Assembly (NCBI GenBank): GCA_052034175.1
Contig: JBPOIX010000274.1
Span: 1-48,533, forward strand
DNA: 48,533 nt
From: Actinomycetota bacterium
GTDB lineage: Bacteria; Actinomycetota; Acidimicrobiia; Acidimicrobiales; Ilumatobacteraceae
Direction: 5' to 3'
Under the pieces are notes generated by a model. The model did not search any database. It had not been told where the DNA came from and saw only the letters and a list, made by a program, of their open reading frames with translations. Below are positions 12,278 through 42,660 of the stretch, in pieces. Position numbers and translations under genes: made by a program. Position 1 is the stretch's first letter. Each line of letters starts with the position of its first letter.

Positions 12278-12298
12278 CCCCGGGCGGGCGCGCCACCA

Positions 12299-12318: not shown

Positions 12319-12327
12319 CGCGCGTTG

Positions 12328-16687: not shown

Positions 16688-16690
16688 AAG

Positions 16691-16711
16691 TATCGGCCAC
16701 CACCGATGTAT
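16691..16711. promoter_or_regulatory. Candidate operator upstream of the ArsR-ATPase-lspA unit
   Basis: ATCGG-ccacca-CCGAT is an inverted repeat, extended by CCGATGTATC. The related sequence CCGATGTCATC occurs at 18859-18869 upstream of the paralogous regulator. Confidence 0.3.
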
Positions 16712-16779
16712 CTGTCAACGCCGATTGATCTGGTCCTCGCGAGCCGCGCGACAGCCGCAAGCGGCACCCACCTACGCTG

Positions 16780-22520: not shown

Positions 22521-22560
22521 CCCGGAAACTCTGCCACACCCCTTCCGTACGATCGGAGGT

Positions 22561-23805: not shown

Positions 23806-25268
23806 AAGAACGCGGCGATCGTTTCCGCTTCGGAGGCCAGCGTGGTCGCGTCCACCAGCTCGCCGGCCTGTTCGGTGAGCAGCGCCACCATGCGGTCGAG
23901 GATCTCCTGCCCGGCGCCACTGGTGAACAGGTCGGCGCGCAGGCGGGTGTCCGCCTCGCTCACCATCGCGGTGAACTCGTCCACCTCGGCCCACTTGGTG
24001 GTGAGCGGGTTGGCGGTGCCTCGTGGCCCAGCCTGCCCGCCGCCCGGCATGACCTGCCCGTCGCCAGGCACCTGGCCGTCGGGCGGCACCTGCCCGTCGC
24101 CCGGAGGAAACCCGCCACCGGGTGGGAACCCTCCGCCGGCTCCGGGCCCGCCGCCTGGGCCGCTGCCTGGGCCGCCGAAACCGCCGAACGCTCCGTTGTG
24201 GTCCCAGGCCACCACGGTCATCCGGCTGGACGCCTCGCTGTAGCGGAGGTAGCTGTTGTTGCCCGGGCCGTCGATGTCGTCCCAGTTGTTCACCAGCGTC
24301 TCGAACGCCAGGTAGGTGGCGAACAGATCCACCTCGAGGTGATTGCCGAGTTCGCCGGCGAAGTCCGACGCGTTGTTGACGAAGTCGAGGAAGCCGATCA
24401 GTGGGCCGAGGAGGTCTTCGTCGGTTCGTGTCTCCTGGTCGAACACCTCGTCGTAGCTCTCGGGGTCCTCGCCGCGGTAGATCCAGTCGCCGGTGCTCTC
24501 CGCCTTGTACAGCACACCGGGGTCGGCGAAGTTGACGGCATCCCAGTCGTCGTCGAGGGACTCGACGGCCAGCCGCAGCGCCGGCCCCAACCCGTTGGCC
24601 ATGAATCGCACATGGACGGCCCGCTCCGTGGCCAACCCGGCCAGCCCCAGCAGTTCCAGCGCCACAGCCTCGTTCAGCGCCGCGGTGGACCGGCTGGAAC
24701 GGATGATGAACTCGGCCACCCCGTCGTGACGCTGCCCCTCGACGTATTTGTCCAGGCGGATCATCCACGGCAGCGTGTGGGGGGTTTCGGCGTCGGCGGA
24801 GCCGCCCGGGCCGTTCTGCCCGGCGCCGCTGCCGCCACCCAACCCGAACAGCGACGAGTTGCCCTTCAGCCGCACACCAGCCTGCTCGTAGCGGCTGCCG
24901 TCGATCGTGACGGTGGCCTCCATCCACTCCTTCTCCTGGCCGTTCACGTACGCCTCGATGATCCCCTCGTAGGCGGCGTCGTCGTACTCCATGCTGATGT
25001 CGTGCACGATCGTGTTGTCCCACAGCGCGGCACCGGCCGCGACAGCGGCGGTCGAGCCCGTGTCGCTCGCCGTGGTCGTGGGCCCTGAAGCCGGGAGCGT
25101 CGAGCCCGTCGAGCCAGACGCCGACCCCGCCGTGGTGTCGGCCGTTCCGCCACCGGACAGCCCGGACACGCCGGACGAGCAGCCGGCCACGGCGATGGTG
25201 GCAGCGCCGGCGAGAAGGCGCCGGCGGGACAGGTGGTGGTGGAGGACGGGCAGCGGGTTCGGGGCCAT
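23802..25268 (-). CDS. CotH kinase-family protein, Tat lipoprotein, with Gly/Pro-rich repeat region
   Basis: Starts LSRRRLLAGAATIAVAGCSS. Contains VRLKGNSS, ALNEAVALELL, YLRYSE...AWDHNGAFG, and GGFPPGGGFPPGDGQVPPDGQVPGDGQVMPGGG. Confidence 0.8.
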   Translation of the reverse strand: MAPNPLPVLHHHLSRRRLLAGAATIAVAGCSSGVSGLSGGGTADTTAGSASGSTGSTLPASGPTTTASDTGSTAAVAAGAALWDNTIVHDISMEYDDAAYEGIIEAYVNGQEKEWMEATVTIDGSRYEQAGVRLKGNSSLFGLGGGSGAGQNGPGGSADAETPHTLPWMIRLDKYVEGQRHDGVAEFIIRSSRSTAALNEAVALELLGLAGLATERAVHVRFMANGLGPALRLAVESLDDDWDAVNFADPGVLYKAESTGDWIYRGEDPESYDEVFDQETRTDEDLLGPLIGFLDFVNNASDFAGELGNHLEVDLFATYLAFETLVNNWDDIDGPGNNSYLRYSEASSRMTVVAWDHNGAFGGFGGPGSGPGGGPGAGGGFPPGGGFPPGDGQVPPDGQVPGDGQVMPGGGQAGPRGTANPLTTKWAEVDEFTAMVSEADTRLRADLFTSGAGQEILDRMVALLTEQAGELVDATTLASEAETIAAFF

Positions 25269-28014: not shown

Positions 28015-30159
28015 ATGGGTACGCGCTCGCGCAAGGTCGTGGTCGTCAGCGGTTCGGCGGCAATCGTCGCGGCCGCAACACCGCTGGGAGGGGTGGGCAC
28101 CGCACATGCGGCGTCGTTCGAGGTCACCAACCTCAACGACGCCGGTGCAGGCTCCCTGCGCCAGGCCGTCCTCGATGCCAACGCGGCGGCCGGGCCGGAC
28201 GTCATCACGTTCCAGTCGGGTCTCAGCGGCACGATCCTGCTGACCACGGGGCAGCTGACCATCACCGACTCGGTGCACATCCAGGGGCCGGGCGCGGCGG
28301 TGCTGACGGTGGACGGCAACAACTCGAGCCGGATCTTCTACCTCTACAACAGCGCCGACGCGGCGAACGACGTCACGATCTCTGGCCTCACGTTGACCAA
28401 CGGCCATGCGAGCCAGGGCGGCGCGATCTCCGCCCGGGGCGATGACCTGAGCCTGCAGAACATGGTGCTGCGGGACAGCGGCGCCCTCTACGGCGGCGGG
28501 CTGTTCTTCACCGGCAACTTCATCGGCGAAACGTTCGACTCGGTCGGCGCCCTCACGATCCTCGACTCGGCGATCACCGGCAACGACGCGGACAACTCCG
28601 GCGGCGGCGTCTTCATCGGAGAAACAGGTGCCGACGTGCTCGTCGACGGCACCCTCATCGACGGCAACACCGCCTACTACTACGGCGGTGGCCTGGCCGT
28701 GCGCTCGGCCTGGCACGACGTGGACATCATCGACTCGCAGATCACGGGCAACGACGCCACCGGCGACGGCGGCGACGGAGGCGGCCTGTTCTTCGACGCT
28801 GCGGGCGAGGTCTACGTGACGGTCACCGGCACCACCGTGTCAGGCAACGAGGCCGTGGACGACGGTGGTGGCATCGTGTTCGGCGACAGGAACGAGCCGG
28901 GCTACACCGGCATCCTCGTCATCGACAGCAGCACCATCTCCGACAACTCCGCCTACTACGGCGATGGCGGCGGGCTGTGGTTCGACTACGCCTTCGGGGT
29001 CGAGGTCGTCAACAGCACGATCTCCGGCAACTATGTCGGGGGAACAGGCGGCGGCGTCCACATGCAGGGCGCTGCAGGTTGGGTGTACATCGAACACTCC
29101 ACCATCACCGACAACTACGCGGGCTACGCCGGCGGTGGCGTCTTCCTCGACGATGAGCAGACGGCCGAAATCGATCACACCATCGTGTCCGGCAACACCA
29201 GCGACGGCGGGTACGAGGACGTCGATGGGTCCGGGTCGCTCACTGCCCACTGGTCGCTGATCGGCGACGCCGCGGCGATCGTCAGTGGTTCCGACAACCT
29301 CGACGACGACAGCCCCGAGCTCGAACCGTTGGCGGACAACGGCGGCCCGACCTTCACCCACATGCCCCAGTCGGGCAGCCCTGCGCTGGACGCCGGCGAC
29401 CCGGCCATCAGCGGCGAGCCCGAGTTCGACCAGCGCGGCGAGGACCGCATCGACGGGGTCATCGACATCGGCGCGGTCGAAGCGCAGGTCAGCCCCGACG
29501 ACGATGCGTACACCGCCTCCGAGGATGTCGTGCTCAACGTGCCCGCCCCGGGTGTGCTCGACAACGACGACCTCTCGGGCAACGCCGTCGTGGTCGACCA
29601 GCCCACCCACGGCACGCTCACACTCAACCCCGACGGGTCCTTCGTCTACACGCCGGCCGCCAACTTCCACGGCTCGGACTCGTTCACCTATGCGCTGGAT
29701 CAGGAAGGTGGCACGGGCTCGTTGGCGGCCGCGCCGTTGACGGCCACCGTCAGCCTCACCGTCAACCCGGTGAACGACCCGCCGGTGGCGCAGAACGATG
29801 CGCTGTCCGCCACCGCCGGCGTGGGCTCGTCGGTGACGGTGAAGGTGAACGACAGCGACGCCGACGGCGACCCGCTGACAATCGTGGGTGTCACCCAGGG
29901 CGCCAAGGGCACGGTGGTGATCGAGGGCAACACGGTGCGCTACACCGCGAATCAGGGCACCAGCGGCACCGACACCTTCACCTACACGATCTCCGACGGC
30001 CAGGAGACCTCGACGGCCACGGTGACGGTCACCATCACCGGTGGGCGCATCCCCGATACCGGCACGTCGTCGTGGAGCCTCGTGATCGCTGCCGCGGCGC
30101 TGCTGGGCGCGGGCTCGGTGCTCACGGGCGCCACTCGCCGGCGGCGCCCCCTGGCCTGA
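28015..30159 (+). CDS. Secreted beta-helix (CSLREA / choice-of-anchor-Q-like) plus cadherin-like surface protein with C-terminal IPDTG sorting signal (paralog 1)
   Basis: A signal peptide is followed by NLNDAGAGSLRQAVLDANAAAGPDVITF. GGG(V/L/I)(F/Y) beta-helix repeats follow, then LADNGGPTFTHMPQSGSPALDAGD. Two units of the form VLDNDD...NFHGSDSFTY / NDSDADGDPL come next. The protein ends RIPDTG plus a hydrophobic helix plus RRRR. Confidence 0.88.
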   Translation: MGTRSRKVVVVSGSAAIVAAATPLGGVGTAHAASFEVTNLNDAGAGSLRQAVLDANAAAGPDVITFQSGLSGTILLTTGQLTITDSVHIQGPGAAVLTVDGNNSSRIFYLYNSADAANDVTISGLTLTNGHASQGGAISARGDDLSLQNMVLRDSGALYGGGLFFTGNFIGETFDSVGALTILDSAITGNDADNSGGGVFIGETGADVLVDGTLIDGNTAYYYGGGLAVRSAWHDVDIIDSQITGNDATGDGGDGGGLFFDAAGEVYVTVTGTTVSGNEAVDDGGGIVFGDRNEPGYTGILVIDSSTISDNSAYYGDGGGLWFDYAFGVEVVNSTISGNYVGGTGGGVHMQGAAGWVYIEHSTITDNYAGYAGGGVFLDDEQTAEIDHTIVSGNTSDGGYEDVDGSGSLTAHWSLIGDAAAIVSGSDNLDDDSPELEPLADNGGPTFTHMPQSGSPALDAGDPAISGEPEFDQRGEDRIDGVIDIGAVEAQVSPDDDAYTASEDVVLNVPAPGVLDNDDLSGNAVVVDQPTHGTLTLNPDGSFVYTPAANFHGSDSFTYALDQEGGTGSLAAAPLTATVSLTVNPVNDPPVAQNDALSATAGVGSSVTVKVNDSDADGDPLTIVGVTQGAKGTVVIEGNTVRYTANQGTSGTDTFTYTISDGQETSTATVTVTITGGRIPDTGTSSWSLVIAAAALLGAGSVLTGATRRRRPLA

Positions 30160-30184
30160 CCAGCCCTCTGACCCGAGCGGCGCG

Positions 30185-33151
30185 TCAGGCGTCCGCGCGG
30201 AGGTCGCCGAGCACGTCCTCGGGCAGCACGAACGCCCCCGCACCCAGCGCATCGCCGGGCTCGAGCAGCTCGGCGAAGCGATGGGGCAGCACCTGCACGT
30301 CGAACACCTCTTCCACCGCGCCGTCGAAGCGGAGGAAGCCGACGATGGCGCCGTCCTCGGTGTCCACCACCCACACGCCACACTGCCGTTCGGTGACCCG
30401 TTCGGCCAGCGGCAGGCCGGCGAACACGTGCTCGCGCACCTTGGACAGGCCCACGAGCGCATAGCGCCCCACGAAGGCCAGGCCGCGGGTGAAGCCAGGG
30501 AGGAGTGCCACGTTGGTCCGGTTGCCGGTGGCCACGTCCACGGTGCACAGCGCGCCGTTGCCCGAGTCCAGCACCCACAGCTGCCCCTGGTGCCACCGCG
30601 GCGAGTGGGGCATCGTCATGCCCTGGGTGATGATGGCGTTGTCGTCGATGTCGATGATCAGGCCACCGCCGACCTTCTCCCGCCGCCAGCCGTGGCGCTC
30701 GTCGGACATGGCGAGCGCGGTGACGTACTTCGGTCGATCTTCCACCATCGCCAACCCGTTGAGGTGGCAGCGGTCCTCGGCCGCCAGCGCAGTGACGAAC
30801 GGGGGGCGCCAGCGCGGCACGAAGCTGTGCTCGTGGTCGAGCGTGGCGAGGCATGAGAAGCGGGTGTTGACGACCCACAGCTCGCCATCGGCGTCGTAGG
30901 CCATCTCGTGGATCGCGATGTCGCCCGTGACATGTGCGGCGCGGGCCACGTAGCACGCGTCGTGTACGGCCTCGCCGGGGAGGCGTTCGGCCAACGCCGG
31001 TTGGTTGTCGAAGTGCCACACGTTGGTGCTGGTGCCGAGGGCCATCTGCCCGCCACCCGCGGCCACGCCCATCGGCCGCGGGAAGGCGCGGAGGTGGGTG
31101 TTCAGCGTGCCGTCGGCGTTGGGGCGCAGGAGCACCACGCGGCCGCTCTGGTAGGTGGTGACGATCACGCTGCGTGCGGCCTTGCTCAGCAGTTCGGCCA
31201 CCGTGCCGGTGTGCACACTGCGGAACGCCTGCTGGCCCGCCGCCTGCACCGCGGCCCGCCGAGCAGCAACCCGCTGCTGGTTGGCGGGCGGGGCCTGCTT
31301 CATCGTCAGCGAGCCCTGCGGCGCGGCGATGAAGGCCGCGGCGCGTTCGGCCACCGGCGCCGCATGGTGCCACGCGCGGTTGATCTCCGCTTCGTTGCGC
31401 TTCCACTTGTCCGCCGCCGGCGCATCCAGGGTGGTCTTCGAGTTCGGCAGCTGCGCGGGCAGCGGCCGATCCCATTCCAGGCCGAGGCGGTCAGCCAGGC
31501 CGCCGACCACCCCGTTCGGGTCGGCGAGCATCTCCTCGTGGCTCACCGCGCACCAGCGGTCGGCGGGGAGGGCTTCGAGGTCGTCGAGCAGCATCGACAC
31601 CGTGGCGGCCCACTGGCGCGCCGCCACGTCTTCCAGTGGAAGGCCGATGTAGTCCTCCCAGCCGGGCACGAGCAGCATCGACCACGGGGCATCGCCCCAG
31701 CCCGGAAGCCCGCGATAGGTGACGAAGCGCTCCGAGCGCCAGGCGTCCAGCATGCTGCTGATCGTCGGCTTCGGGTCGCGGTGGAGGTAGAGGAAGCCGG
31801 CGTCGGGGAAGGCCTCGGCGAGGAAGGGGATGCGCAGCGCGTTCTTCGGTGTCTTCTCCAGCAGGCGGATCGGTGCCCTCCCGACCGGCACCCGCCCATC
31901 CCGGTCGCGGGCCCGTGCGGCGAACGTCTCGTCGAGCCGGGTGGCCAACGCCGGGGTGACATCGCCCGCATCGAGACGGTTGGAGTGCCACCCGCGGCTC
32001 GCAGGGTGCAGCTCGCGGTTGCGCTCGAACACCTCGTGGCTCTCGCCGCCGATCGTGAACAGGCCCTTGGCCCGCGCCAGGGACTCGAACAGCAGGGAGC
32101 TGCCGGAGCGCGGCGAGCTGACGATGAACACCGGGCGCTCCAGGCGCCTCCCGGTCCCTGAGGTGCGAGTTCCGCGCTGCGGTGCGTTCGGCGGGGGCGC
32201 CCACTGTGGCGGGCGGTGCGCCGGCGCATTCTCGCCGGGCAAGGGGGCCAGGCTCGGCCGGATCAACAGTTGGCGCACGGTCTCGGCGAAACCGCTCCCG
32301 TTCGTCAGCTGGACTTTGGGGAGGCGTTGCAGCTGTTCGTCGAGGCGTGCCGCCACCCTGTCGTACAGGGGGCGGGCCGCAGGGTCGTCGCGGTGGATCA
32401 CCCACAGCGCGTGCCAGTCGGCCACGAAGTCCCGCATCGCCACGCGGAGCTCCGCTGGTGCGCCGTCAGGAAGGTCGCTGGCGATGCCGTCGGCCATCAC
32501 CCGATGCAGCCAGGGGGCGGTGGTGACGAGCGGCTCGGCGGACTCGTAGATCGGCTCGGCATCGCCTTCGACCAGCGACCCGATGGGTTCACCCTCGATG
32601 CCGTGCACGTCGCCGTCGTCGATGCGGTGCCACAACGCCGCGGACCCGACGGTGTCGATGACGAGGTGCACTCTGGCGAAGTCCGCAGGGTTGTCCACCC
32701 CGTGGCGCTGCCAGGTATCGAACACCCACACCTCGCCCGGCGCCATGTGCACCGACCGCTCGTCACACGTGAAACGCACATCGGGGTGGGTGATCACCGG
32801 CGCGTGGACGCGCATGTGCTCCTGCCAGTAGCGGTTGGTGTCCACGTGCAGGTCGAGATGCCCCTCCGGCTCGATGCGCATCAGGCGGGTGCGGCCGATC
32901 GGTGCGCCCAGCGAGGCGAGCACGGTGCGGTGGTACGGCATCTGCAGCAGGTGCTTCGTGGGTGCCATCGCGCCCGTGGTGGCATGGTCCAGATGGTTGC
33001 CGCCGGACGCCACCAGCTGCACGCAGGTGTTCCCCGGCGCACCCTCGGGGTGGGGGATCCACGCGTCGTCGGGGAGGGCCAGCACTTCGGCGGCCAGCCG
33101 CTCGGCGTCCACGCGCAGGGCCAGACGGATGAAGGTGCGGTCGAGACGCAT
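30185..33151 (-). CDS. 988-aa tri-domain fusion: Asp/Asn beta-hydroxylase-like, sulfotransferase, TIGR03032/DUF4915-like
   Basis: aa ~90-170 read GHLDLHVD...RVHAPVITHP...PGEVWVFDTWQRHGVDN...RVHLVIDTV (aspartyl/asparaginyl beta-hydroxylase fold pattern). aa ~338-600 read PVFIVSSPRSGSSLL and LLEKTPKNALRIPFL (PAPS-binding sulfotransferase motifs). aa ~640-960 read VIVTTYQSGRVVLL, DRCHLNGLAM, PHSPRWHQGQLWVLDSGNG and VFDVQVLP (TIGR03032-like). No signal peptide or TM. Only the lower 2967 nt of ORF 30185..34576 are coding. Confidence 0.85.
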   Translation of the reverse strand: MRLDRTFIRLALRVDAERLAAEVLALPDDAWIPHPEGAPGNTCVQLVASGGNHLDHATTGAMAPTKHLLQMPYHRTVLASLGAPIGRTRLMRIEPEGHLDLHVDTNRYWQEHMRVHAPVITHPDVRFTCDERSVHMAPGEVWVFDTWQRHGVDNPADFARVHLVIDTVGSAALWHRIDDGDVHGIEGEPIGSLVEGDAEPIYESAEPLVTTAPWLHRVMADGIASDLPDGAPAELRVAMRDFVADWHALWVIHRDDPAARPLYDRVAARLDEQLQRLPKVQLTNGSGFAETVRQLLIRPSLAPLPGENAPAHRPPQWAPPPNAPQRGTRTSGTGRRLERPVFIVSSPRSGSSLLFESLARAKGLFTIGGESHEVFERNRELHPASRGWHSNRLDAGDVTPALATRLDETFAARARDRDGRVPVGRAPIRLLEKTPKNALRIPFLAEAFPDAGFLYLHRDPKPTISSMLDAWRSERFVTYRGLPGWGDAPWSMLLVPGWEDYIGLPLEDVAARQWAATVSMLLDDLEALPADRWCAVSHEEMLADPNGVVGGLADRLGLEWDRPLPAQLPNSKTTLDAPAADKWKRNEAEINRAWHHAAPVAERAAAFIAAPQGSLTMKQAPPANQQRVAARRAAVQAAGQQAFRSVHTGTVAELLSKAARSVIVTTYQSGRVVLLRPNADGTLNTHLRAFPRPMGVAAGGGQMALGTSTNVWHFDNQPALAERLPGEAVHDACYVARAAHVTGDIAIHEMAYDADGELWVVNTRFSCLATLDHEHSFVPRWRPPFVTALAAEDRCHLNGLAMVEDRPKYVTALAMSDERHGWRREKVGGGLIIDIDDNAIITQGMTMPHSPRWHQGQLWVLDSGNGALCTVDVATGNRTNVALLPGFTRGLAFVGRYALVGLSKVREHVFAGLPLAERVTERQCGVWVVDTEDGAIVGFLRFDGAVEEVFDVQVLPHRFAELLEPGDALGAGAFVLPEDVLGDLRADA

Positions 33152-33250
33152 AGTCGGGTGAACATAGCCCGGCTCGTGGACCCATTCCCATGTGGTAGCT
33201 TCCCCACGCTGCGCAGCGGGCGCGCCACGGCACGGGAACCGGGGTTTGAC

Positions 33251-35392
33251 ATGGGTGGAAGCAAGCGGAAGATCGTCGTCCTCACGGGCTCGGCGACGGC
33301 GGTCGTGGCCGCCACACCGTTCGTGGGGGTCGGCGCTGCGGAGGCGGCGTCGTTCAACGTCACCAACCTCAACGACTCCGGTGCGGGATCGTTGCGGCAG
33401 GCGCTCCTCGACGCCAACGGTGCTGCAGGCCCGGACGTCATCACGTTCCAGGCCGGGCTCACCGGCACCATCGTGCTCACCACCGGCGACATTGGCATCA
33501 ACGACTCCGTCGACATCCAGGGCCCCGGGGCCGCCGTGCTCACGGTCAGCGGCAACAACGCCAGCCGCATCTTCTACCTCTACAACTCGCAGAACACGCC
33601 GATCGACGTCACGATCTCCGGGCTGACGCTCACCGCCGGCGCGGATGACGATGGCGGTGCGATCCATGTGTTTGGCGAGGTCCTCGAACTCGACGAGATG
33701 GTGATCACCGAGAACGTCGCCCAGTATCAGGGCGGCGGCGTGTACTTCTCCGCCAACTATGTCGAGGCGTCGGGCCAATTCGGCCAGCTGACGATCACGG
33801 ACTCCGAGATCAGCGGCAACCACGCAGAGGACGGCGGCGGGGTGTACGTCAACTACAGCGGCGATCCGCTGCTGATCTCGAACACCACGGTCTCCGGTAA
33901 CTATGCCGAGGACAACGGTGGCGGCCTCGCCCTGTACAGCACGACCTCGACCGTCACCATCACCGACTCGCGCATCGTCGACAACGACGCGTACGGGGTT
34001 GGTGGCGGCATCTACCTGTACGACACCGACGGCGGTGAGGTCCACGTCGTCCGCTCCACGATCTCCGGCAATGAAGCAGGTGACGACGGAGGCGGGATCT
34101 ACTTCTACGACCTCGACGACAGCGTGGTGATCGATTCGAGCACGATCTCCGGCAACTACTCCGGCGACGACGGCGGCGGCATCTATGTGCGGAACGAGCC
34201 CCAGTACCTCTCGATCGTCAACTCCACCATCTCCGGGAACTACGCCGACAGCAGGGGCGGTGGCATCTTCCTCGGGCAGGTCTCGGCAGAAGAGTTGACC
34301 TCGATCGACCACTCGACGATCACCGACAACTACGCCGTTGATGGCGGTGGCGGGATCTACCTCTACGGGTCCGGGGTCGATCTCTTCCACACGATCGTGT
34401 CGGGGAACTCGACCGACGGCGGCGACCAAGACCTTGACGGCGCGAACTTCTTCCTCTCGGCAGACTGGTCGCTGCTGGGCGACACGCCGACCCCAGGCAG
34501 TGGTGCGAACAACATCTACTACACCAACCCGGGGCTCGAGTCCCTGGCGGACAACGGTGGGCCGACCGAGACCCACGCGCCGATGTCAGGTTCACCGGCG
34601 TTGGAGGCAGGCGATCCGGCCATCACGGGCGAGCCGGAGTTCGATCAGCGCGGCGAGGCTCGTGTGGACGGCATCATCGAGATCGGCGCGGTGGAGGAGA
34701 ACCTCGGGCCGGTGGACGACGCGTACTCGGTGAACGAGGATGCCGTGCTGAACGTCGCAGTTCCGGGTGTTCTGGACAACGACGTTCCCGGTGGCCTGGC
34801 GACGGTGGTGTTGGAGACGGGGCCGGCGCACGGCACCTTGTCGCTGAACGCCGATGGCTCGTTCACCTACACGCCTGCGGCGAACTTCCACGGCGCGGAT
34901 TCGTTCGTCTACTCGCTGCTGGTGGGGCAGCCGACGTCGTTGGAGATCGAGCCGGAGATGGAGCCCGTGCCGACGGCGACCGTGGCGATCACGGTGAACG
35001 CGGTCAACGATCCGCCTGTGGCCCAGAACGACACCGCCGCGGCAACCGTCGGGGTCGGGTCGTCGGTCACCGTGCAGACGAACGACAGCGACGCCGACGG
35101 CGACCCGCTGACGATCGTGGGTGTCACCCAGGGCGCCAAGGGCACGGTGGTCATCCAGGGCAACACGGTCCGCTACACCGCGAACCAGGGCGCCAGCGGC
35201 ACCGACACCTTCACGTACACGATCTCTGACGGCAGCGAGACCTCCACGGCCACGGTCACCGTCACGATCACCGGCGGGCGCATCCCCGACACCGGGAGCT
35301 CCTCGTGGTCGCTGGTGTTCGTGGCCGCCGGCCTGCTCGGCGCTGGTGCCGCGCTGACCGGTTCCTCCCGCCGCCGCCGCACCCCCGCCTGA
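33251..35392 (+). CDS. Secreted beta-helix plus cadherin-like surface protein with IPDTG sorting signal (paralog 2)
   Basis: Same architecture as 28015..30159: NLNDSGAGSLRQALLDANGAAGPDVITF, LADNGGPTETHAPMSGSPALEAGD, and a RIPDTGSSSWSLV...RRRR end. Divergent from the tri-domain gene across a 99-nt gap. Confidence 0.88.
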   Translation: MGGSKRKIVVLTGSATAVVAATPFVGVGAAEAASFNVTNLNDSGAGSLRQALLDANGAAGPDVITFQAGLTGTIVLTTGDIGINDSVDIQGPGAAVLTVSGNNASRIFYLYNSQNTPIDVTISGLTLTAGADDDGGAIHVFGEVLELDEMVITENVAQYQGGGVYFSANYVEASGQFGQLTITDSEISGNHAEDGGGVYVNYSGDPLLISNTTVSGNYAEDNGGGLALYSTTSTVTITDSRIVDNDAYGVGGGIYLYDTDGGEVHVVRSTISGNEAGDDGGGIYFYDLDDSVVIDSSTISGNYSGDDGGGIYVRNEPQYLSIVNSTISGNYADSRGGGIFLGQVSAEELTSIDHSTITDNYAVDGGGGIYLYGSGVDLFHTIVSGNSTDGGDQDLDGANFFLSADWSLLGDTPTPGSGANNIYYTNPGLESLADNGGPTETHAPMSGSPALEAGDPAITGEPEFDQRGEARVDGIIEIGAVEENLGPVDDAYSVNEDAVLNVAVPGVLDNDVPGGLATVVLETGPAHGTLSLNADGSFTYTPAANFHGADSFVYSLLVGQPTSLEIEPEMEPVPTATVAITVNAVNDPPVAQNDTAAATVGVGSSVTVQTNDSDADGDPLTIVGVTQGAKGTVVIQGNTVRYTANQGASGTDTFTYTISDGSETSTATVTVTITGGRIPDTGSSSWSLVFVAAGLLGAGAALTGSSRRRRTPA

Positions 35393-35462: not shown

Positions 35463-36620
35463 GTGGATGACTTCACGAGTGCGACTGCCACGCTCGACCC
35501 CGTGGCGGGTGTCGACGCGTTGGTACACGCCCTGGCCGGTGACGGCTACCGGGTCGTCGGCCCGACCGAGCGCGACGGTGTGATCTCGTACCGCGAACTG
35601 TCGCGGGGCACGGACATGCCCACCGGCGTGCGCACCGAGCAGAGGGCGGGCTCCTTCCGTCTCGCTCACGACGGCGAGACCCGCTTCGGCTGGACGCCGG
35701 CGGCGGACTCCTGGCGTGCCTGGGTGTTCCCTGCGGAGGAGGAAGTGCTGCGCATCCGCCGGACGGACGGCTCGTTCGTCACCACTCGTCCGGCGCTGCC
35801 CACCCAGCCCTTGGCGCTGTTCGCCGCGCGGGACTGCGAGGTCCGCGCCCTGGGCATCCTCGACCGCGTCCTGCTGGAGGGCGCCCACCCCGACCCGCGG
35901 TACGCGGCCCGCCGCAACGACGCGTTCATCGTGGCCGTCACCTGCACCACCCCCTCCGAGAGTTGCTGGTGCACCGGCACGGGCGGCGGCCCCCAGCCCC
36001 GAGCCGACTTCGACATCCGCCTCACAGAGCTCACCGAGGGTGGGCATCGGCTGCTGGCCGAGGCCGGCAGCGAACGCGGGGCCGCTCTGCTGCAGCGGCT
36101 GGCCGCGCCGGCTGCCACGGGCGCTGACCTCGCTGCCGCCGAGACGGTGGTGGAACGGGCTGTCGCGGCGATCCGCCGTCCGGTGGACGCCGCCGCTCTG
36201 ACCATGCAGCTGGCGGGGAAGGACCGGGACGTGCAGTGGGAGGCCGTGGCCGAACGCTGCTTCGCCTGCGGCAACTGCACGCTGGTGTGCCCGACGTGCT
36301 TCTGTGTCGCCTACGACGACGTCACGGCGCTCACCGACGACGGTGGGCCGGCGGTGGAAACGGTTCGCCGCCAACAGTGGGCGTCGTGCTTCCAACTCGA
36401 CCACTCCAACCTCGGCGGCAAGCCGGTGCGCGCCAGCGTGGCCTCCCGCTACCGCCAATGGCTGACCCACAAGCTGCAGACCTGGGAGGCCCAGTTCGGC
36501 ACGGCGGGTTGTGTCGGCTGTGGCCGCTGCACCACCTGGTGCCCCGCAGGCATCGACCTACCCGCGGAAGCGGCGCTGCTGGCAGCCACGACAGCCCCTG
36601 CTCAAGGAGGCACACAATGA
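35463..36620 (+). CDS. hyhB: 4Fe-4S cluster subunit of a group 3-type [NiFe]-hydrogenase (beta subunit, AsrA-like)
   Basis: Contains CFACGNCTLVCPTCFC and CVGCGRCTTWCPAGI ferredoxin motifs. GTG start. ATGA coupling to the next gene. Confidence 0.8.
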   Translation: MDDFTSATATLDPVAGVDALVHALAGDGYRVVGPTERDGVISYRELSRGTDMPTGVRTEQRAGSFRLAHDGETRFGWTPAADSWRAWVFPAEEEVLRIRRTDGSFVTTRPALPTQPLALFAARDCEVRALGILDRVLLEGAHPDPRYAARRNDAFIVAVTCTTPSESCWCTGTGGGPQPRADFDIRLTELTEGGHRLLAEAGSERGAALLQRLAAPAATGADLAAAETVVERAVAAIRRPVDAAALTMQLAGKDRDVQWEAVAERCFACGNCTLVCPTCFCVAYDDVTALTDDGGPAVETVRRQQWASCFQLDHSNLGGKPVRASVASRYRQWLTHKLQTWEAQFGTAGCVGCGRCTTWCPAGIDLPAEAALLAATTAPAQGGTQ

Positions 36621-37078
36621 CCGATCTCTCCGCGCTGTTGGCGGGGCACCCGTTCTTCACCGGGGTCGACCCCGCACTCCTTGGTCGCCTGGCTTCGGTG
36701 ACCGCGGTGGAGGAGTTCCCGGCAGGTTCCTGGGTGGCTCATTCGGGCGCGCCGGCGGACCGCTTCTACGCCGTCATCGCTGGCCGCGCCGGGATCGAGA
36801 TCGCCGCCGCAGGGCGCGAGCCACTCCTGGTGGCCACCGTGCACCCTGGGGAAGTGATCGGCTGGTCGTGGTTCGTCGAACCCCACGAGTGGCACTTCGA
36901 CGTGCTGGCGCTGGAACCCTTGCGCACCCTGGCGATGGACGCCACTGCGCTGCGTGCTGCGTGCCGCGCCGACCATGAGCTCGGCTATCAGGTGGCCCAC
37001 CGGCTGGCCCGCGTCGTGGCCTCGCGCCTGGTGGCCACCCGGCATCAACTGGTGGATGTCTATGGCCGCGAACGCTGA
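36617..37078 (+). CDS. Stand-alone cyclic-nucleotide-binding (CAP effector) domain protein, no DNA-binding domain
   Basis: Reads LLAGHPFFTGVDPALLGRLAS...EFPAGSWVAHSGAPADRFYAVIAGRAGIEI...GEVIGWSW. The protein is only 153 aa. Confidence 0.75.
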   Translation: MTDLSALLAGHPFFTGVDPALLGRLASVTAVEEFPAGSWVAHSGAPADRFYAVIAGRAGIEIAAAGREPLLVATVHPGEVIGWSWFVEPHEWHFDVLALEPLRTLAMDATALRAACRADHELGYQVAHRLARVVASRLVATRHQLVDVYGRER

Positions 37079-37877
37079 CCCGATGCTCCCGTCGCCCTAC
37101 CTGGTGACGGCTGCAGCCCCCGAGACACCGGATGTCGTCAGCCTCACGCTGACCCCGGTCGATTCGCCGATCCTGCCCCCCGGGCCCGGGCAGTTCGTGA
37201 TGATCTGGGTCCCGGCGGTCGGCGAGGTGCCGATCTCCGTCAGCCGCGTCACGCCCGCCGGCGACCTCGTGCTGACGGTGCGGTCCGTGGGCGCAGTGAG
37301 CGCAGCCATCGTCGGCCAGGCGGATGGTGGCGTGGTCGGCATCCGCGGCCCGTTCGGCACCGAGTGGCCCGTCGCCGAGGTGGCCGGCGGCGACGTGCTC
37401 GTGGTGGCCGGAGGCCTCGGGCTGGCCCCGTTGCGCATGGCGGTCGACCGGCTGGTGGCCGCGGCCGCGCCACAGGTGACCGTGGTGGCAGGCGCCCGCG
37501 AGCCGGACCAGATGCTCTACCCGGCCGACCTTGCGAACTGGGCTGCTGCCGGCGCCGCGGTGCACACCACCGTCGACGCCGCCGACCGCAACTGGGCCGG
37601 CGCGGTGGGCACGGCGACGGCGATGGTGGAACGGCTGGGCCGTGGGTTCGACGCGGCCTTCGTGTGCGGGCCGGAGATCATGATGACCACCGCTGCTCGG
37701 GCCGCCACGCGCGCCGGCACCCCTGCCGGGGGAGTGTGGGTCTCGCTCGAGCGCAACATGCACTGCGGTGTCGCCCGTTGCGGGCGATGCCAGCTGGGCC
37801 CGCTGCTGCTGTGCCGCGACGGTGCAGTCGTTCCCTGGGCCGTGTCCGCCGACCTGCTGGAGGTGCGTGGACGATGA
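37062..37877 (+). CDS. hyhG: FAD/NAD(P)-binding, [2Fe-2S] gamma subunit of the hydrogenase (AsrB / PyrK-like)
   Basis: Reads GQFVMIWVPAVGEVPISVS, VVAGGLGLAPL and the C-terminal CGVARCGRCQLG. The start is uncertain (37056, 37062 or 37083). Confidence 0.8.
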   Translation: MAANADPMLPSPYLVTAAAPETPDVVSLTLTPVDSPILPPGPGQFVMIWVPAVGEVPISVSRVTPAGDLVLTVRSVGAVSAAIVGQADGGVVGIRGPFGTEWPVAEVAGGDVLVVAGGLGLAPLRMAVDRLVAAAAPQVTVVAGAREPDQMLYPADLANWAAAGAAVHTTVDAADRNWAGAVGTATAMVERLGRGFDAAFVCGPEIMMTTAARAATRAGTPAGGVWVSLERNMHCGVARCGRCQLGPLLLCRDGAVVPWAVSADLLEVRGR

Positions 37878-38629
37878 CTGCCCCCACCCGTCCCACTGTT
37901 GCCGTGTGGAAGTTCGCTTCCTGCGACGGCTGCCAGCTCACCGTGCTCGACTGCGAGGACGAGCTGCTGCAGATCGCCGCGGCGCTGGACATCCGCATGT
38001 TCCTCGAGGCCGGCCCGGAGGAACTGCTGGACCACTACGACATCTCCCTCGTCGAGGGTTCGGTCACCACCGCCCACGACGCCGAACGGATCCAGGACAT
38101 TCGGGCCCGCTCCGGCCTGTTGATCACGATCGGCGCCTGCGCCACGGCTGGCGGCATCCAGGCGCTGCGCAACTCGGCCGACGTGGGGGAATACACGGCC
38201 GCCGTCTACGCGCGGCCGGACTGGATCCACACCCTGGCCACCAGCACGCCGATCTCCGCGCACGTGAAGGTCGACCGTGAGCTGCACGGCTGCCCGATCT
38301 CACGGCACGAGCTGCTCGCCCTGATCACCGCGTTGCTGGCCGGGCGAAGGCCGCCCGTCTCGCGCCACGCCGTCTGCGTGGAATGCAAGCAGGCCGGAAA
38401 CGCGTGCGTGCTCGTGGCCGAAGGAGTGCCGTGCCTCGGGCCGGCCACTCACGCCGGCTGCGGTGCGCTGTGCATGAAGTTTGGGCGTGGCTGCTTCGGC
38501 TGCTTCGGCCCGTGCGAGTCCGCCAACGTGCCCGCGCTGCGCCTGGCATGGCAGGCGGCCGGCATCCCCGAGGGCGAACTGACGCGGGCGCTGCGCACGT
38601 TCAACGTGTCCGCCTGGGAGGAACGATGA
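37874..38629 (+). CDS. hyhS: [NiFe]-hydrogenase small (delta) subunit, NuoB-like
   Basis: Reads VAVWKFASCDGCQLTVLD, ITIGACATAGGIQ, HGCPISRHE and the C-terminal Cys cluster CVECK...CLGPATHAGCGALC. ATGA overlaps on both sides. Confidence 0.88.
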   Translation: MTAPTRPTVAVWKFASCDGCQLTVLDCEDELLQIAAALDIRMFLEAGPEELLDHYDISLVEGSVTTAHDAERIQDIRARSGLLITIGACATAGGIQALRNSADVGEYTAAVYARPDWIHTLATSTPISAHVKVDRELHGCPISRHELLALITALLAGRRPPVSRHAVCVECKQAGNACVLVAEGVPCLGPATHAGCGALCMKFGRGCFGCFGPCESANVPALRLAWQAAGIPEGELTRALRTFNVSAWEER

Positions 38630-39948: not shown

Positions 39949-40433
39949 GCGTGGCGGCGCCGCACGTCACGGTGATCGGCATCGGCAACCCGTACCGGCG
40001 CGACGATGGCGCCGCAGCCGCAGTGCTGCGGCAGCTGGCGGAGGAGTTCACCGGCGACCCGGATGTTCGGCTGGTGGAGCTGGATGGCGAGTCCGTGCGC
40101 CTGGTGCAGGCGTGGGAAGGGTCGCGGGTGGTGTGGATCGTGGACGCGGTGCGCAGCGGCCGCCCGCCTGGCACCGTCCACGAGGTGGAGGCCACGCGCC
40201 TCGCTGATCTGGACGACTCCGGCCGCCGGCTCGGCGGTGGCCACCTGATGGGCCTGTCCGAGGCGGTGGAGCTGGCCCGCGCGCTCGACCTTCTGCCCGC
40301 GGAGCTGAGGGTGCTCGGCATCGAGGGGGAGGACTTCGACCACGGCGAAGGCCTCTCGCCGTCCGTGCGCGAAGGGGTGCACGCGGCGGCAGCACTGCTG
40401 ACGGCGGCCGTGCGGAGCCGGTCGGGCCAATAG
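39945..40433 (+). CDS. Hydrogenase maturation endopeptidase
   Basis: Reads VIGIGNPYRRDDGAAAAVL...WIVDAV...GGGHLMGL, typical of HycI/HyaD/HoxW-type proteases. GTGA overlap with the large-subunit stop. Confidence 0.85.
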   Translation: MSVAAPHVTVIGIGNPYRRDDGAAAAVLRQLAEEFTGDPDVRLVELDGESVRLVQAWEGSRVVWIVDAVRSGRPPGTVHEVEATRLADLDDSGRRLGGGHLMGLSEAVELARALDLLPAELRVLGIEGEDFDHGEGLSPSVREGVHAAAALLTAAVRSRSGQ

Positions 40434-40524: not shown

Positions 40525-42660
40525 ATGGTTGGCAAGCGCAAGGTCGTCGTTTTCTCAGGTTCGGCCGCCGCCGTGGTCGTCGCCACCCCGTTCGTGGGTG
40601 TGGGCACGGCGTCCGCCGTGTCGTTCGAGGTCACGAACCTCAGCGACTCCGGCGCCGGCTCCCTGCGCCAAGCCATCGAGGACGCCAACAACGTCGCGGG
40701 TCCGGATGTCATCACGATCCAGTCCGGCTTGTCGGGCACGATCACGCTCTCGTCCGGCCATCTGAGCATCAACGACTCCGTCGAGATCCAGGGTTCCAGC
40801 GACGTCACGATCAGCGGTGGCAACGCGTCGCGCATCTTCTACCTCTACAACTCGACCGCCACCCCGATCGAGGTCACCATCAGCGGCTTCGCCCTCGAGG
40901 ACGGTGCCGCGTCGGAAGGTGGTGCCGTGAAGGTGGCCGACGCTCACCTCTCGTTGAGCGCGGTGTCGATTGCCAACAACGCCGCCGACGGCGACGGCGG
41001 CGCCATCTGGATCGACGGTGACGACGGGTGGCTCGAGGTCGACGATTCCGTCATCGCGGACAACTCCGCCGGTGCCGCCGGTGGCGGCGTCTTCGTGGGC
41101 GAGGTGGCCGAAGTCAGCCTGCGGACCTCCACCGTGGAGGCGAACTATGCCGGCGATGACGGCGGTGGTGTCTACATCCGCTCCACCACCGACGGCTTCT
41201 CGCTCGCCGACAGCGAGCTGGCTGTCAACTCCGCGGCCCAGCAGGGCGGCGGCCTGTTCGTCGAAACGAGCGACGGCGACGAGATGGTCGTCCTCCGCTC
41301 GACCATCTCGGGGAACGTGGCCCGCGACGGTGGCGGCATCTACATCAACAGCCCCACCGACCCGCTCATCATCGACCAGTCCACCATCAGCGACAACACC
41401 GCCACCTTCGACGGTGGCGGGGTGTTCATCTACCTCGGCTACTACGCGGAGATCACCTCGAGCACGATCTCCGGCAACGAAGCCGGCGACCAAGGTGGCG
41501 GCGTCTACCTCAACGAGACCTTCTACTACGACAGCGGCGACGGCTTCTACGCGTCGCCGCTGAGGGTCGCGCACAGCACGATCACCGAGAACTACTCGGG
41601 GGATGGCGGCGGTGGCATCTACATCGCCGAAGGCTGGCTGGAGCTCGACCACTCGATCGTGTCCGGCAACGACAGCGACGGCGGCTACGAGGACATCGAC
41701 TCGGCCTACTACCACAGCGCCTACCCGTACGCCCCGGTGTACAGCACGTGGTCGCTGGTGGGCGATGTGCGCGAGCTGTACTCGAGCAACGACGACGTGT
41801 ACGACAGCAACCCGATGTTGGATTCGCTGGCCGACAACGGCGGCCCCACCGAGACCCACCTCCTGCTGCCCGGAAGCCCGGCCAGTGAAGCCGGCGACCC
41901 CGCGATCAGCGGTGCTCCCACGACCGACCAGCGTGGCCTTACCCGCATCGTCGGGGCCATCGACATCGGTGCGGTCGAGGCCCAGATCGTGCTCGAGGAC
42001 GACGAGTTCTCCACCAACGAGGACACCGTGCTCACCGTCGCGGTGCCCGGCGTGCTGGACAACGACCAGGTGGACGTGCCGGCCGTGGCGTCGGTGGTGG
42101 CAACCCCCACCAGCGGCACGCTCGTCCTGAACGCGGACGGCTCGTTCACGTACACCCCGAACGCCAACTTCCACGGCTCGGACACCTTCCGCTACACGGT
42201 CACCGAAGCCGACGTCACCGCGTTGCAGGCGGAACCCGTGAGCGCCGAGGTCACGATCACCGTCAACCCGGTGAACGACCCGCCGGTGGCCCTGCCGGAC
42301 ACCGTGACGGCGATGGCCGGGGTGAACACTCCCGTCACCGTCGTGGTGAACGACTCGGACAGCGACGGCGACCCGATCTCGATCGTCGGGGTCACCCAGG
42401 GCGCCAAGGGAACCGTCGTCATCGACGGTAACCAGGTGCGCTACACGCCGAACGCCAACGCGTCGGGCACGGACTCGTTCACTTACACGATCAGCGACGG
42501 CACCACCACGGTCACCGCCACCGTCACCGTCACCATCCTTCGCGGGCGCATCCCCGAGACCGGTACGTCATCGTGGTCGCTGGTGTTCGGCGCGTTCGGC
42601 TTGCTCGGGGCGGGCATGGTGCTCACCGGTACCGCCCGCCGCCGCCCGCGCCGGGCGTAA
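40525..42660 (+). CDS. Secreted beta-helix plus cadherin-like surface protein with IPETG sorting signal (paralog 3, most diverged)
   Basis: Reads NLSDSGAGSLRQAIEDANNVAGPDVITI, LADNGGPTETHLLLPGSPASEAGD and VLDNDQ...NFHGSDTFRY. Ends RIPETGTSSWSLVFGAFGLLGAGMVLTGTARRRPRRA. Confidence 0.88.
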   Translation: MVGKRKVVVFSGSAAAVVVATPFVGVGTASAVSFEVTNLSDSGAGSLRQAIEDANNVAGPDVITIQSGLSGTITLSSGHLSINDSVEIQGSSDVTISGGNASRIFYLYNSTATPIEVTISGFALEDGAASEGGAVKVADAHLSLSAVSIANNAADGDGGAIWIDGDDGWLEVDDSVIADNSAGAAGGGVFVGEVAEVSLRTSTVEANYAGDDGGGVYIRSTTDGFSLADSELAVNSAAQQGGGLFVETSDGDEMVVLRSTISGNVARDGGGIYINSPTDPLIIDQSTISDNTATFDGGGVFIYLGYYAEITSSTISGNEAGDQGGGVYLNETFYYDSGDGFYASPLRVAHSTITENYSGDGGGGIYIAEGWLELDHSIVSGNDSDGGYEDIDSAYYHSAYPYAPVYSTWSLVGDVRELYSSNDDVYDSNPMLDSLADNGGPTETHLLLPGSPASEAGDPAISGAPTTDQRGLTRIVGAIDIGAVEAQIVLEDDEFSTNEDTVLTVAVPGVLDNDQVDVPAVASVVATPTSGTLVLNADGSFTYTPNANFHGSDTFRYTVTEADVTALQAEPVSAEVTITVNPVNDPPVALPDTVTAMAGVNTPVTVVVNDSDSDGDPISIVGVTQGAKGTVVIDGNQVRYTPNANASGTDSFTYTISDGTTTVTATVTVTILRGRIPETGTSSWSLVFGAFGLLGAGMVLTGTARRRPRRA

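Follow-up and report, generated by a model that had tools for sequence, protein, structure and literature searches.

The N-glucosyltransferase HMW1C and the heptosyltransferases Aah and TibC modify beta-helix adhesins that are encoded next to them, and they do so before these adhesins are exported. To our knowledge, all characterised enzymes of glycosyltransferase family GT41 (OGT, SPY and HMW1C/NGT; CAZy) glycosylate proteins, bacterial protein sulfation is almost unknown, with RaxST/RaxX as the only well-studied case, and hydroxylation of Asp or Asn in proteins is rare in bacteria. AspH and the TPST enzymes are protein-modifying relatives of the oxygenase and sulfotransferase modules considered here. 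We analysed a stretch of 48,533 nucleotides (nt) from an actinobacterium of the Ilumatobacteraceae (assembly GCA_052034175.1, contig JBPOIX010000274.1), in the following called the window, which carries among genes for beta-helix surface proteins a gene for a protein of 988 amino acids (aa) that joins an Fe(II)/2-oxoglutarate (2OG) oxygenase of the cupin type, a sulfotransferase using 3'-phosphoadenosine 5'-phosphosulfate (PAPS) and a DUF4915/TIGR03032 domain (Table 1). Judging from its sequence, this protein is an intact and catalytically plausible oxygenase-sulfotransferase-propeller. Moreover, a comparison of loci established a strong and specific link, which holds across phyla, between its propeller domain and beta-helix surface proteins of the choice-of-anchor Q type.

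The coding signal is uniform along the gene, with a GC content at third codon positions (GC3) of 0.88-0.93 in each of ten 100-codon bins (0.91 overall; 0.49 at second positions). The stop-to-stop frame extends over 30185-34576, and within it coding character begins at the ATG at 33151; the upstream extension to 34576 has a GC3 of 0.60, is non-coding and overlaps the genuine plus-strand gene at 33251-35392. All three domains score above the gathering cut-offs of Pfam, namely Asp_Arg_Hydrox (PF05118, aa 65-167) with 42.9 bits (cut-off 22.6), Sulfotransfer_3 (PF13469, aa 340-561) with 92.3 bits (27) and DUF4915 (PF16261, aa 651-957) with 420.1 bits (35), and TIGR03032 of NCBIfam is matched with 410.6 bits (251.5). 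A search of 5.8 billion proteins gave 2,078 matches; in the best 120, which we looked at, nearly all proteins are 958-1096 aa long, carry the same three Pfam domains at 47-78% identity and align over 98-100% of the query. A frameshift, a misassembly or separate genes are ruled out by the uniform coding signal and these collinear full-length homologues. Both the single 988-aa polypeptide and the three domain assignments, which had been proposed in a sequence-only reading of this DNA, are therefore borne out. The motifs on which that reading had relied are found in the translation, with HLDLHVD, RVHAPV, GEVWVFDTWQRHGVDN and RVHLVIDTV in the oxygenase, FIVSSPRSGSSLL and LEKTPKNALRIPFL in the sulfotransferase and SGRVVLL, EDRCHLNGLA and HSPRWHQGQLWVLDSGNG in the DUF4915 region. 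It had also named an absence of catalytic residues as an outcome that would speak against it; on alignment, the His, Asp and Arg residues and the PAPS-binding residues are present and invariant. The N-terminus of the enzyme (MRLDRTFIRL...) belongs to the conserved cupin domain, in which M1, L3, L10 and D15 are nearly invariant, and there is therefore no signal peptide. Neither a hydrophobic N-terminus nor a transmembrane segment was found in the 988-aa sequence, and the suggested cytoplasmic location agrees with this.

Three paralogous surface-protein genes, adh1, adh2 and adh3, accompany the enzyme gene. Their products share one layout, which starts with a signal peptide, a head of the form F-x-VTNLxDxGAGSLRQA (CSLREA-like GSLRQAL in adh2) and a PMP-type parallel beta-helix with coils of the form [ST]ISGN-x-A...GGG. 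The beta-helix is followed by a choice-of-anchor Q segment (NF041518), by two modules of the cadherin/Big_9 ('tandem-95') kind and by an IPDTG sortase-type anchor, which exceeds the LPXTG_anchor cut-off by a narrow margin and has a weak resemblance to the LAVTG class. The open reading frames (ORFs) of the window that were scanned included no recognised sortase gene, and a promoter and terminator scan of 29900-33500 gave nothing above chance.

When all fetched loci were searched with the window adhesins, the matches always fell on the beta-helix part (query aa ~30-485) and never primarily on the cadherin part. For the count of partner genes we used a hidden Markov model (HMM) of 36 beta-helix sequences (33 partners and the three window paralogues), considered loci of at least 6 kb, accepted partners within 10 kb and took loci with a cupin-sulfotransferase fusion lacking DUF4915 as the control. 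A beta-helix partner is present at 27 of the 44 DUF4915 loci and at none of the 34 control loci (Fisher p=1.1e-9). The 44 loci come from Actinomycetota, Acidobacteriota, Verrucomicrobiota, Proteobacteria, Cyanobacteria, Planctomycetota and Chloroflexota, and partners were found for 14/17 tri-domain enzymes, 5/9 sulfotransferase-DUF4915 proteins, 8/16 DUF4915 proteins without sulfotransferase or cupin and 0/2 cupin-DUF4915 proteins. The partner thus goes with the propeller and with neither the cupin nor the sulfotransferase. Of the 19 non-duplicate tri-domain loci, 13 have it, like the window, directly upstream of the enzyme gene and in divergent orientation, with 80-343 nt between the aligned regions of these pairs. 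For example, the enzyme at locus L002, which is 62% identical to the window protein, has a divergent upstream Chlam_PMP/NosD/cadherin protein followed by an adenosine 5'-phosphosulfate (APS) kinase gene, and the enzymes at L003/L004 and L007, from other phyla and 50% identical, have a divergent Beta_helix/NosD/Calx-beta protein. At L006, the divergent neighbour of 641 aa has no Pfam match and carries choice-of-anchor Q. This domain (NF041518) is present in all five partners scanned with NCBIfam, and their sorting signals differ. Two of the three cyanobacterial loci that combine DUF4915 with tetratricopeptide repeats (TPR) and a glycosyltransferase (GT) also have a partner, of 1,384 aa in Baaleninema (487 bits with the HMM) and of 2,094 aa, beside a GT9 gene, in Pleurocapsa. 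A signal peptide is not evident in the Baaleninema partner (L087:2911-7065, minus strand), which begins with MATIFVDSLDDN..., so that export of some partners may follow a route other than Sec. Single-linkage clustering of neighbouring ORFs, which was muddied by overlapping high-GC ORFs, recognised no second conserved neighbour. The sequence-only reading had suggested the neighbouring surface proteins as substrates. Their candidacy gains real support from the conserved synteny, while its emphasis on the cadherin modules does not hold, as the link follows the beta-helix part. Within the partner coils ([ST]x[GD]N...GGG), Tyr at position N+1 is frequent in the window paralogues and reaches only ~10% across the tri-domain partners; neither an acceptor motif in general nor a conserved acidic-Tyr motif was found in these proteins. 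The frequency of Asp is slightly raised where the enzyme contains a sulfotransferase (0.09-0.12 vs 0.05), a difference that is confounded with phylogeny and not usable.

The fusion is no isolated case, since at least 120 tri-domain homologues exist in several phyla. The closest are from Acidimicrobiaceae/Ilumatobacteraceae, and others come from Thermoanaerobaculia, Acidobacteriota, Verrucomicrobia and Proteobacteria; among the best 120, named homologues bear only the label 'TIGR03032 family protein'. The DUF4915 family comprises ~3,818 clusters at 50% identity (E<=1e-3), or 1,053 at E<=1e-30. A literature search found no paper on the DUF4915/TIGR03032 family or on the cupin-sulfotransferase-DUF4915 fusion, in line with the earlier statement that the family has no assigned function. 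With each GTDB species represented by a single genome, a scan gave at least 598 loci, the best 79 of which were sorted into five classes. Among these are 18 new loci with all three domains (L018 was counted as sulfotransferase-DUF4915) and 36 with cupin and sulfotransferase without DUF4915 (Rhodanobacter, Caulobacterales, Lysobacterales, Steroidobacteraceae and others). Sulfotransferase-DUF4915 proteins occur in Solirubrobacterales, Thermoleophilaceae and Mycobacteriales, DUF4915 alone or with other domains in Cyanobacteria, Gemmataceae, Gammaproteobacteria and Caldilineaceae, and the cupin-DUF4915 combination in Wenzhouxiangella. Including earlier look-ups, the totals are 19 non-duplicate tri-domain loci and 10 sulfotransferase-DUF4915 loci.

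Proteins with an N-terminal DUF4915 domain (n=35) carry TPR in 27 cases, Glyco_transf_41 in 9 (E down to 1e-95), GT2 in 6, GNAT in 6 and GT9-like segments in 5; the coordinates of individual proteins give the order DUF4915-(GNAT)-TPR-GT41, so that the propeller precedes an entire OGT-like enzyme. Where DUF4915 is C-terminal (n=35), Sulfotransfer_3 is present in 15 and Asp_Arg_Hydrox in 5 proteins. We also observed super-fusions in which one chain combines as many as four modules with a putative modifying or binding role: P0263 and P0252 are DUF4915-GNAT-TPR-GT41 proteins, and P0383 (1,461 aa), a cupin-sulfotransferase-DUF4915-TPR protein, joins the tri-domain type to the TPR type. P0383 is not a permuted fusion, as its Pfam coordinates give the usual order of cupin, sulfotransferase and DUF4915 with an additional C-terminal TPR region. 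The existence of proteins with all three domains, with each of the pairs sulfotransferase-DUF4915, cupin-sulfotransferase and cupin-DUF4915, with DUF4915 alone and with all three domains plus TPR places the modules in one pathway by Rosetta-stone logic.

Fusions of cupin, helical domain and sulfotransferase without the propeller are frequent in Xanthomonadales/Lysobacterales, Steroidobacteraceae and Caulobacterales (loci L028-L084; for example L028:9953-11845, L037:221-1447 and L034:13365-14129). Genes near these loci include bacterioferritin-like genes (13 loci), TonB-dependent receptors (11), TPR-Asp_Arg_Hydrox genes (11), a DUF2333 gene and, in several loci, a second stand-alone cupin gene. 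In Proteobacteria, these neighbours, including bacterioferritin, the TonB receptor, TPR-AspH and DUF2333, gave no functional clue. The propeller-less loci look like a separate, also uncharacterised system.

Residue conservation was assessed in an alignment of 28 tri-domain homologues with 48-79% identity to the window protein. In the oxygenase, H102, D104, H150 and R160 are invariant in these and in a second alignment of 44 homologues, and R87, R89, H116 and H162 are further invariant positions among the 28. The cupin alignment profile matches L-proline cis-4-hydroxylase (4p7w) with E=6e-13, and in the alignment with this enzyme H102-x-D104 corresponds to HRD, H150 to the distal His and R160-x-HLVxD to R-x-HLVVD. 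Residues 1-335 were modelled with AF2 (predicted local distance difference test, pLDDT, 89.9; predicted template modelling score, pTM, 0.86); the model has a double-stranded beta-helix in aa 1-170 and, after it, a helical domain in aa 171-301. Foldseek ranked 4p7w first, followed by a nucleoside-antibiotic hydroxylase (7v4f, 24% identity), proline 3-hydroxylase (1e5r) and human AspH, the latter with a root-mean-square deviation of 2.7-3.5 A over ~161 residues. With its complete HxD...H triad and the 2OG-binding Arg, the domain is a competent-looking PF05118 oxygenase. The former label 'LpxO-like' amounts to a Pfam-family name, given that the nearest solved relatives are free-proline hydroxylases, the nucleoside-antibiotic hydroxylase and human AspH. 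As a refinement it cannot be supported, because the enzyme has no membrane segment and no lipid context: its window neighbours are surface-protein, hydrogenase and acyl-CoA genes, and neither LpxO-type membrane anchoring nor a lipid A or lipopolysaccharide (LPS) context was found.

The sulfotransferase domain has the motifs expected of its family. Its SSPRSGSS loop aligns with the 5'-phosphosulfate-binding (5'-PSB) loop of TPST1 and with SSPRSGSTLL of CurM, E370 matches GEET in TPST1 and PELH in CurM, K433 matches NKDP in TPST1 and DKSP in CurM, and R458...S465/S466 falls on the 3'-phosphate-binding motif of TPST1. In profile comparisons, the CurM sulfotransferase was the best solved match (E=4e-11), followed by TPST1 (4e-10) and TPST2 (8e-8). 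The distances to TPST and to the CurM sulfotransferase are thus similar, and the class of acceptor cannot be read from similarity. No PAPS-supply genes were found among the genes within the window. At L002, the APS kinase gene for PAPS synthesis (L002:7200-7814, minus strand) lies directly beside the beta-helix partner, which fits a local demand for PAPS.

For the DUF4915 domain, the AF2 model of aa 630-988 is all-beta (pLDDT 92.5, pTM 0.91). Foldseek returned 816 matches in the Protein Data Bank at E<=1e-3; the best, with template modelling scores (TM) of ~0.45-0.53 and 8-17% identity, were six-bladed designed, YVTN, Kelch, YWTD and NHL propellers and strictosidine synthase. The model confidently predicts a six-bladed-type beta-propeller without a specific enzyme relative. 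PAL-like, aryl-sulfotransferase-like or lactonase-like propellers were considered and are unsupported, as the Foldseek matches were generic only, and no lyase-like propeller, either peptidyl-hydroxyglycine lyase or another catalytic propeller, stands out in the top 50. Invariant among the 28 homologues are H748, H796, H849, R764, D793, R794, R823, R852, R889 and R906. In the sets with N-terminal and with C-terminal DUF4915, Y667, Q668, H748, D793, R794, H796 and N798 are likewise invariant or nearly so, and R823, H849, S850, R852, R889, S903 and R906 are kept in both. The family motifs TYQ, TRFSC, DRCHLNG, PHSPR, R-G and S..R are all present in the window protein, and their cores are fully or to at least 90% conserved across alignments that span four architectures. 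DSSP mapping placed PMG, IHE, NTRFSC, EDRCHLNG, MPHSPR, FTRG and CGVW at or just before strand starts of the model. With three invariant His and many Arg on successive strand starts, one face of the predicted propeller may resemble a metal or anion site.

With a probability of about 45%, we propose that the window protein is a cytoplasmic tailoring enzyme which hydroxylates and sulfates the adjacent beta-helix proteins (adh2, adh1 and probably adh3) before export. The propeller would tie the enzyme to CSLREA-type/choice-of-anchor Q beta-helix proteins, either by docking or through a core reaction that is possibly metal-aided, and the oxygenase and the sulfotransferase would add a hydroxyl group and a sulfate to the same substrate prior to Sec export and sortase anchoring. 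Hydroxylation followed by sulfation of one substrate, which the sequence-only reading had taken to be implied, is plausible by Rosetta-stone logic, with both the order and the acceptor being putative. The distribution of export signals is consistent with such a division, as the enzyme and the stand-alone DUF4915 proteins, which have polar N-termini, lack signal peptides and the partners carry signal peptides and anchors. In other lineages, the propeller might recruit OGT-like TPR-GT41, GT2, GT9-like or GNAT modules and thereby direct different decorations to the same class of surface proteins. More tentatively, DUF4915 could be the recognition or catalytic core of a hitherto unrecognised post-translational modification system for CSLREA-type/choice-of-anchor Q beta-helix proteins that spans multiple phyla and uses interchangeable writer modules (2OG hydroxylase, PAPS sulfotransferase, OGT-like TPR-GT41, GT2, GT9-like and GNAT).

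Several points weigh against modification of the adhesins. Synteny is a functional link and not a substrate relationship, and 17 of the 44 DUF4915 loci have no partner within 10 kb, including the tri-domain loci L001, L005 and L017. Many Proteobacteria with cupin-sulfotransferase fusions lack both the propeller and a nearby partner. The partners yielded no residue motif whose occurrence co-varies with that of the sulfotransferase or cupin module. Proteins pass through Sec in the unfolded state, so that the beta-helix could not be recognised in its folded form. Foldseek identified no specific structural relative of the modelled propeller, so that its role in catalysis or docking stays putative, and our literature search found no biochemical work on any DUF4915 family member. 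Furthermore, the nearest solved relatives of the cupin hydroxylate free amino acids or a nucleoside and not proteins, the sulfotransferase is as close to the CurM sulfotransferase, whose substrate is an acyl-ACP (ACP, acyl carrier protein), as to TPST, and PF13469 also includes polysaccharide sulfotransferases.

These last three observations favour the main alternative, which we regard as rather unlikely and in which the enzyme tailors a glycan, a lipid or a small molecule and the beta-helix proteins bind or process the product outside the cell; the linkage of the genes would then need no protein modification. It would also suit the Pfam matches of the partners to NosD and Beta_helix (pectate-lyase/NosD/CASH-type folds), the fusion of DUF4915 to GT2 and GT9-like modules, which commonly build glycans, and the Wzy_C and GT9 genes near the Pleurocapsa locus. 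However, the beta-helix gene is the sole conserved neighbour that we recognised, and no genes for a flippase, a polymerase, sugar nucleotides or lipids are conserved beside the pair; among the fusions to glycosyltransferases, the strongest are OGT-like TPR-GT41 proteins, whose family is known only from protein glycosylation; and the enzyme is soluble, with no membrane segment.

The three activities could also form a sequence of activation and elimination, in which the cupin would install a beta-hydroxyl group, sulfation would convert it into a leaving group, as the CurM sulfotransferase does, and the propeller, as a metal-dependent lyase or cyclase, would generate a dehydro-residue or a cross-link in place of a stable sulfate. 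We regard this as improbable, and its likelihood is not to be added to those of the other explanations because it refines the proposed tailoring of the beta-helix proteins rather than competing with it. The best solved match of the sulfotransferase is the 'activating' enzyme CurM, the possible metal or anion site of the modelled propeller would suit such chemistry, and peptidylglycine amidating monooxygenase is a precedent for a hydroxylase paired with a six-bladed propeller lyase. Nevertheless, sulfotransferase-DUF4915 proteins, DUF4915 alone and DUF4915-TPR-GT proteins are common, which argues that the propeller needs neither a hydroxylase nor a sulfate donor, and the peptidyl-hydroxyglycine lyase propeller is absent from the Foldseek top 50, where the matches are generic with TM ~0.5. 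Just as doubtful is a propeller that serves as a cytoplasmic chaperone, targeting factor or regulator of the beta-helix proteins, with the cupin and the sulfotransferase acting on an unrelated substrate. Foldseek did give mainly protein-binding propellers (Kelch, YWTD and NHL), and stand-alone DUF4915 genes adjoin partner genes; yet EDRCHLNG, MPHSPR and TRFSC are strictly invariant across phyla and architectures, as is typical of active sites and not of binding surfaces, and the propeller has been fused repeatedly and independently to six kinds of transferase or oxygenase, which points to a common substrate. Finally, it is highly improbable that the adjacency is a coincidence owing to the abundance of beta-helix genes in these genomes and that the fusion has no common substrate, for although the window itself holds three paralogues within 15 kb and 17/44 DUF4915 loci have no nearby partner, the contrast of 27/44 with 0/34 loci (p=1.1e-9), the position of the partner as nearly always the immediate neighbour instead of scattered over the 20-kb flank, and the divergent orientation kept in 13 tri-domain loci from different phyla all speak against it.

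Apart from the enzyme and its putative partners, the window contains a copper-handling island (1229-18324), a [NiFe]-hydrogenase cluster and a gene for a CotH-kinase-family protein (Table 1). The hydrogenase cluster encodes a Fer4_22 iron-sulfur protein, an FNR-like NAD-binding protein, the small subunit (Oxidored_q6), the large subunit (NiFeSe_Hases) and a HycI-type maturation protease; a [NiFe]-hydrogenase is also found near the tri-domain homologue at L005. The CotH-family protein has an N-terminus (SRRRLLAGAATIAVAGCSS) that resembles a twin-arginine or lipoprotein signal, and it is possibly a secreted protein kinase. The overlap of ~500 nt between the ORF at 22306-23805 and the enoyl-CoA hydratase gene at 21843-22814 means that one of the starts is wrong or one of the ORFs is spurious.

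Table 1. Coordinates of the tri-domain enzyme gene, its predicted domains and motifs, the beta-helix surface-protein genes and further features of the window.
Feature	Position	Strand	Basis or remark
Tri-domain enzyme gene	30185..33151	-	ATG at 33151, stop codon 30185-30187; 988 aa; cupin - helical domain - sulfotransferase - DUF4915 propeller
Fe(II)/2OG oxygenase (double-stranded beta-helix/cupin) domain, aa 1-170	32642..33151	-	PF05118 match aa 65-167
H102-V-D104, HxD of predicted iron-binding facial triad	32840..32848	-	Alignment invariance
Distal His150, predicted iron ligand	32702-32704	-	Alignment invariance
Arg160, predicted 2OG-binding	32672-32674	-	Alignment invariance
Helical domain, aa 171-301	32249..32641	-	Alignment and AF2; no Pfam match; W246 and N284 invariant; packs with cupin in model
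Pro-rich linker, aa 302-339	32135-32248	-	AF2; low confidence from ~aa 301, pLDDT <50 at aa 322-335
PAPS-type sulfotransferase domain (PF13469), aa 340-561	31469..32134	-	Pfam, profile alignments
5'-phosphosulfate loop SSPRSGSS, aa 345-352	32096-32119	-	Invariant P347/R348/G350
E370-S-H372 (GESH)	32036-32044	-	Invariant E370 and H372; E370 predicted catalytic base
K433 (EKTPKN)	31853-31855	-	Invariant; predicted catalytic Lys
3'-phosphate motif R458...S465/S466	31754-31780	-	Invariant in 28 homologues
DUF4915/TIGR03032 domain, aa 651-957, predicted six-bladed-type beta-propeller	30281..31201	-	Pfam, NCBIfam, AF2, Foldseek
His748, invariant	30908-30910	-	Alignment
His796, invariant	30764-30766	-	Alignment
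His849, invariant	30605-30607	-	Alignment
adh1, 714-aa paralogue, convergent	28015..30159	+	Domain layout; ends 25 bp from enzyme stop codon
adh2, 713-aa secreted surface protein, divergent from enzyme	33251..35392	+	Candidate substrate/partner
adh2 choice-of-anchor Q domain, aa 426-482	34526-34696	+	NCBIfam NF041518
adh3, 711-aa third paralogue	40525..42660	+	Domain layout; 7.4 kb away, beyond hydrogenase cluster
C-termini of adh1-3: IPDTG, hydrophobic stretch, RRRR tail	30040-30159, 35270-35392, 42540-42660	+	Non-canonical LPXTG-type sortase signal
Divergent intergenic region, enzyme gene/adh2, 99 bp	33152..33250	.	Coordinates
P-type ATPase with HMA domain, copper-handling island	1229-3700	+	Domain scan
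Rce1-like CAAX protease, copper-handling island	5735-6451	-	Domain scan
CopC-CopD fusion, copper-handling island	8647-10287	-	Domain scan
Second P-type ATPase, copper-handling island	14403-16271	-	Domain scan
Three-domain multicopper oxidase, copper-handling island	16780-18324	-	Domain scan
Enoyl-CoA hydratase gene	21843-22814	-	Overlapped by opposite-strand ORF 22306-23805
499-aa ORF, GC3 0.85	22306-23805	+	No Pfam match; overlaps enoyl-CoA hydratase gene by ~500 nt
CotH-kinase-family protein, 2.7 kb from adh1	23802-25268	-	Pfam, 82.5 bits; no NCBIfam match
Compact soluble [NiFe]-hydrogenase cluster, between two beta-helix paralogues	35502-40433	+	Layout reminiscent of group 3

The family studied here is catalogued and functionally blank, and the chemistries of its component modules are already known. 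What appear to be new are the conserved pair of enzyme and beta-helix genes, the assignment of the propeller fold and a propeller core with interchangeable protein-modifying modules. If DUF4915 is the core of such a modification system, the window protein would rank as the first bacterial enzyme with demonstrated hydroxylation and O-sulfation of a surface adhesin before its export. A widespread enzyme family writing such marks on beta-helix surface proteins would add a new layer to the bacterial tuning of adhesion, biofilm matrix and antigenicity, and a role would be at hand for the large domain DUF4915 and the equally uncharacterised choice-of-anchor Q proteins. The reach of DUF4915 extends over soil and marine Acidimicrobiia, Acidobacteriota, cyanobacteria, planctomycetes and proteobacteria, and the gene pair of enzyme and partner makes its function directly testable.

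Compared with described families, the window protein is a full-score member of TIGR03032/DUF4915 (PF16261) with all family-wide invariant motifs, and its tri-domain architecture is already present in public databases. Its cupin shares the Pfam family, the double-stranded beta-helix fold and aligned iron and 2OG ligands with AspH and other PF05118 oxygenases. AspH uses two His only as iron ligands, whereas the window cupin has a canonical HxD...H triad; it also has the extra helical domain (aa 171-301), no TPR and the fused sulfotransferase and propeller. LpxO, which is membrane-anchored and acts on lipid A, shares PF05118 with the window cupin and differs in its hydrophobic segment and LPS/lipid context; the host of the window protein, in contrast, is an actinobacterium with sortase-anchored surface proteins. 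We know of no solved LpxO structure for comparison.

The sulfotransferase shares with TPST1/2 and RaxST the PF13469 family, the PRSG(T/S)(T/S) 5'-PSB loop, the R...S motif for 3'-phosphate binding, the Lys and the catalytic Glu ~21 residues downstream of the loop, but, unlike TPST, which resides in the Golgi, it is predicted to be cytoplasmic, and it forms one part of a fusion protein. Features in common with the activating sulfotransferases of polyketide off-loading (CurM/OLS type) are the SSPRSGS(T/S)LL loop, the Lys and an E-x-H motif, which reads PELH in CurM and GESH in the window protein; here, however, the context of polyketide synthase, ACP and thioesterase is missing, and the putative donor of the hydroxyl group is a 2OG oxygenase instead of a ketoreductase. 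The closest parallel in organisation is provided by HMW1C (GT41) and Aah/TibC, which the window enzyme resembles in its soluble cytoplasmic location and in the adjacency to a beta-helix adhesin gene, and fusions to GT41 and GT9-like modules exist among the DUF4915 relatives. The window enzyme is not homologous to them, has an extra propeller and would catalyse hydroxylation and sulfation, and modification of the adhesin is here a proposal only. Nevertheless, the arrangement that characterises the HMW1C type, a cytoplasmic enzyme whose gene adjoins that of a secreted beta-helix adhesin in a manner conserved across taxa, is found for the window protein as well.

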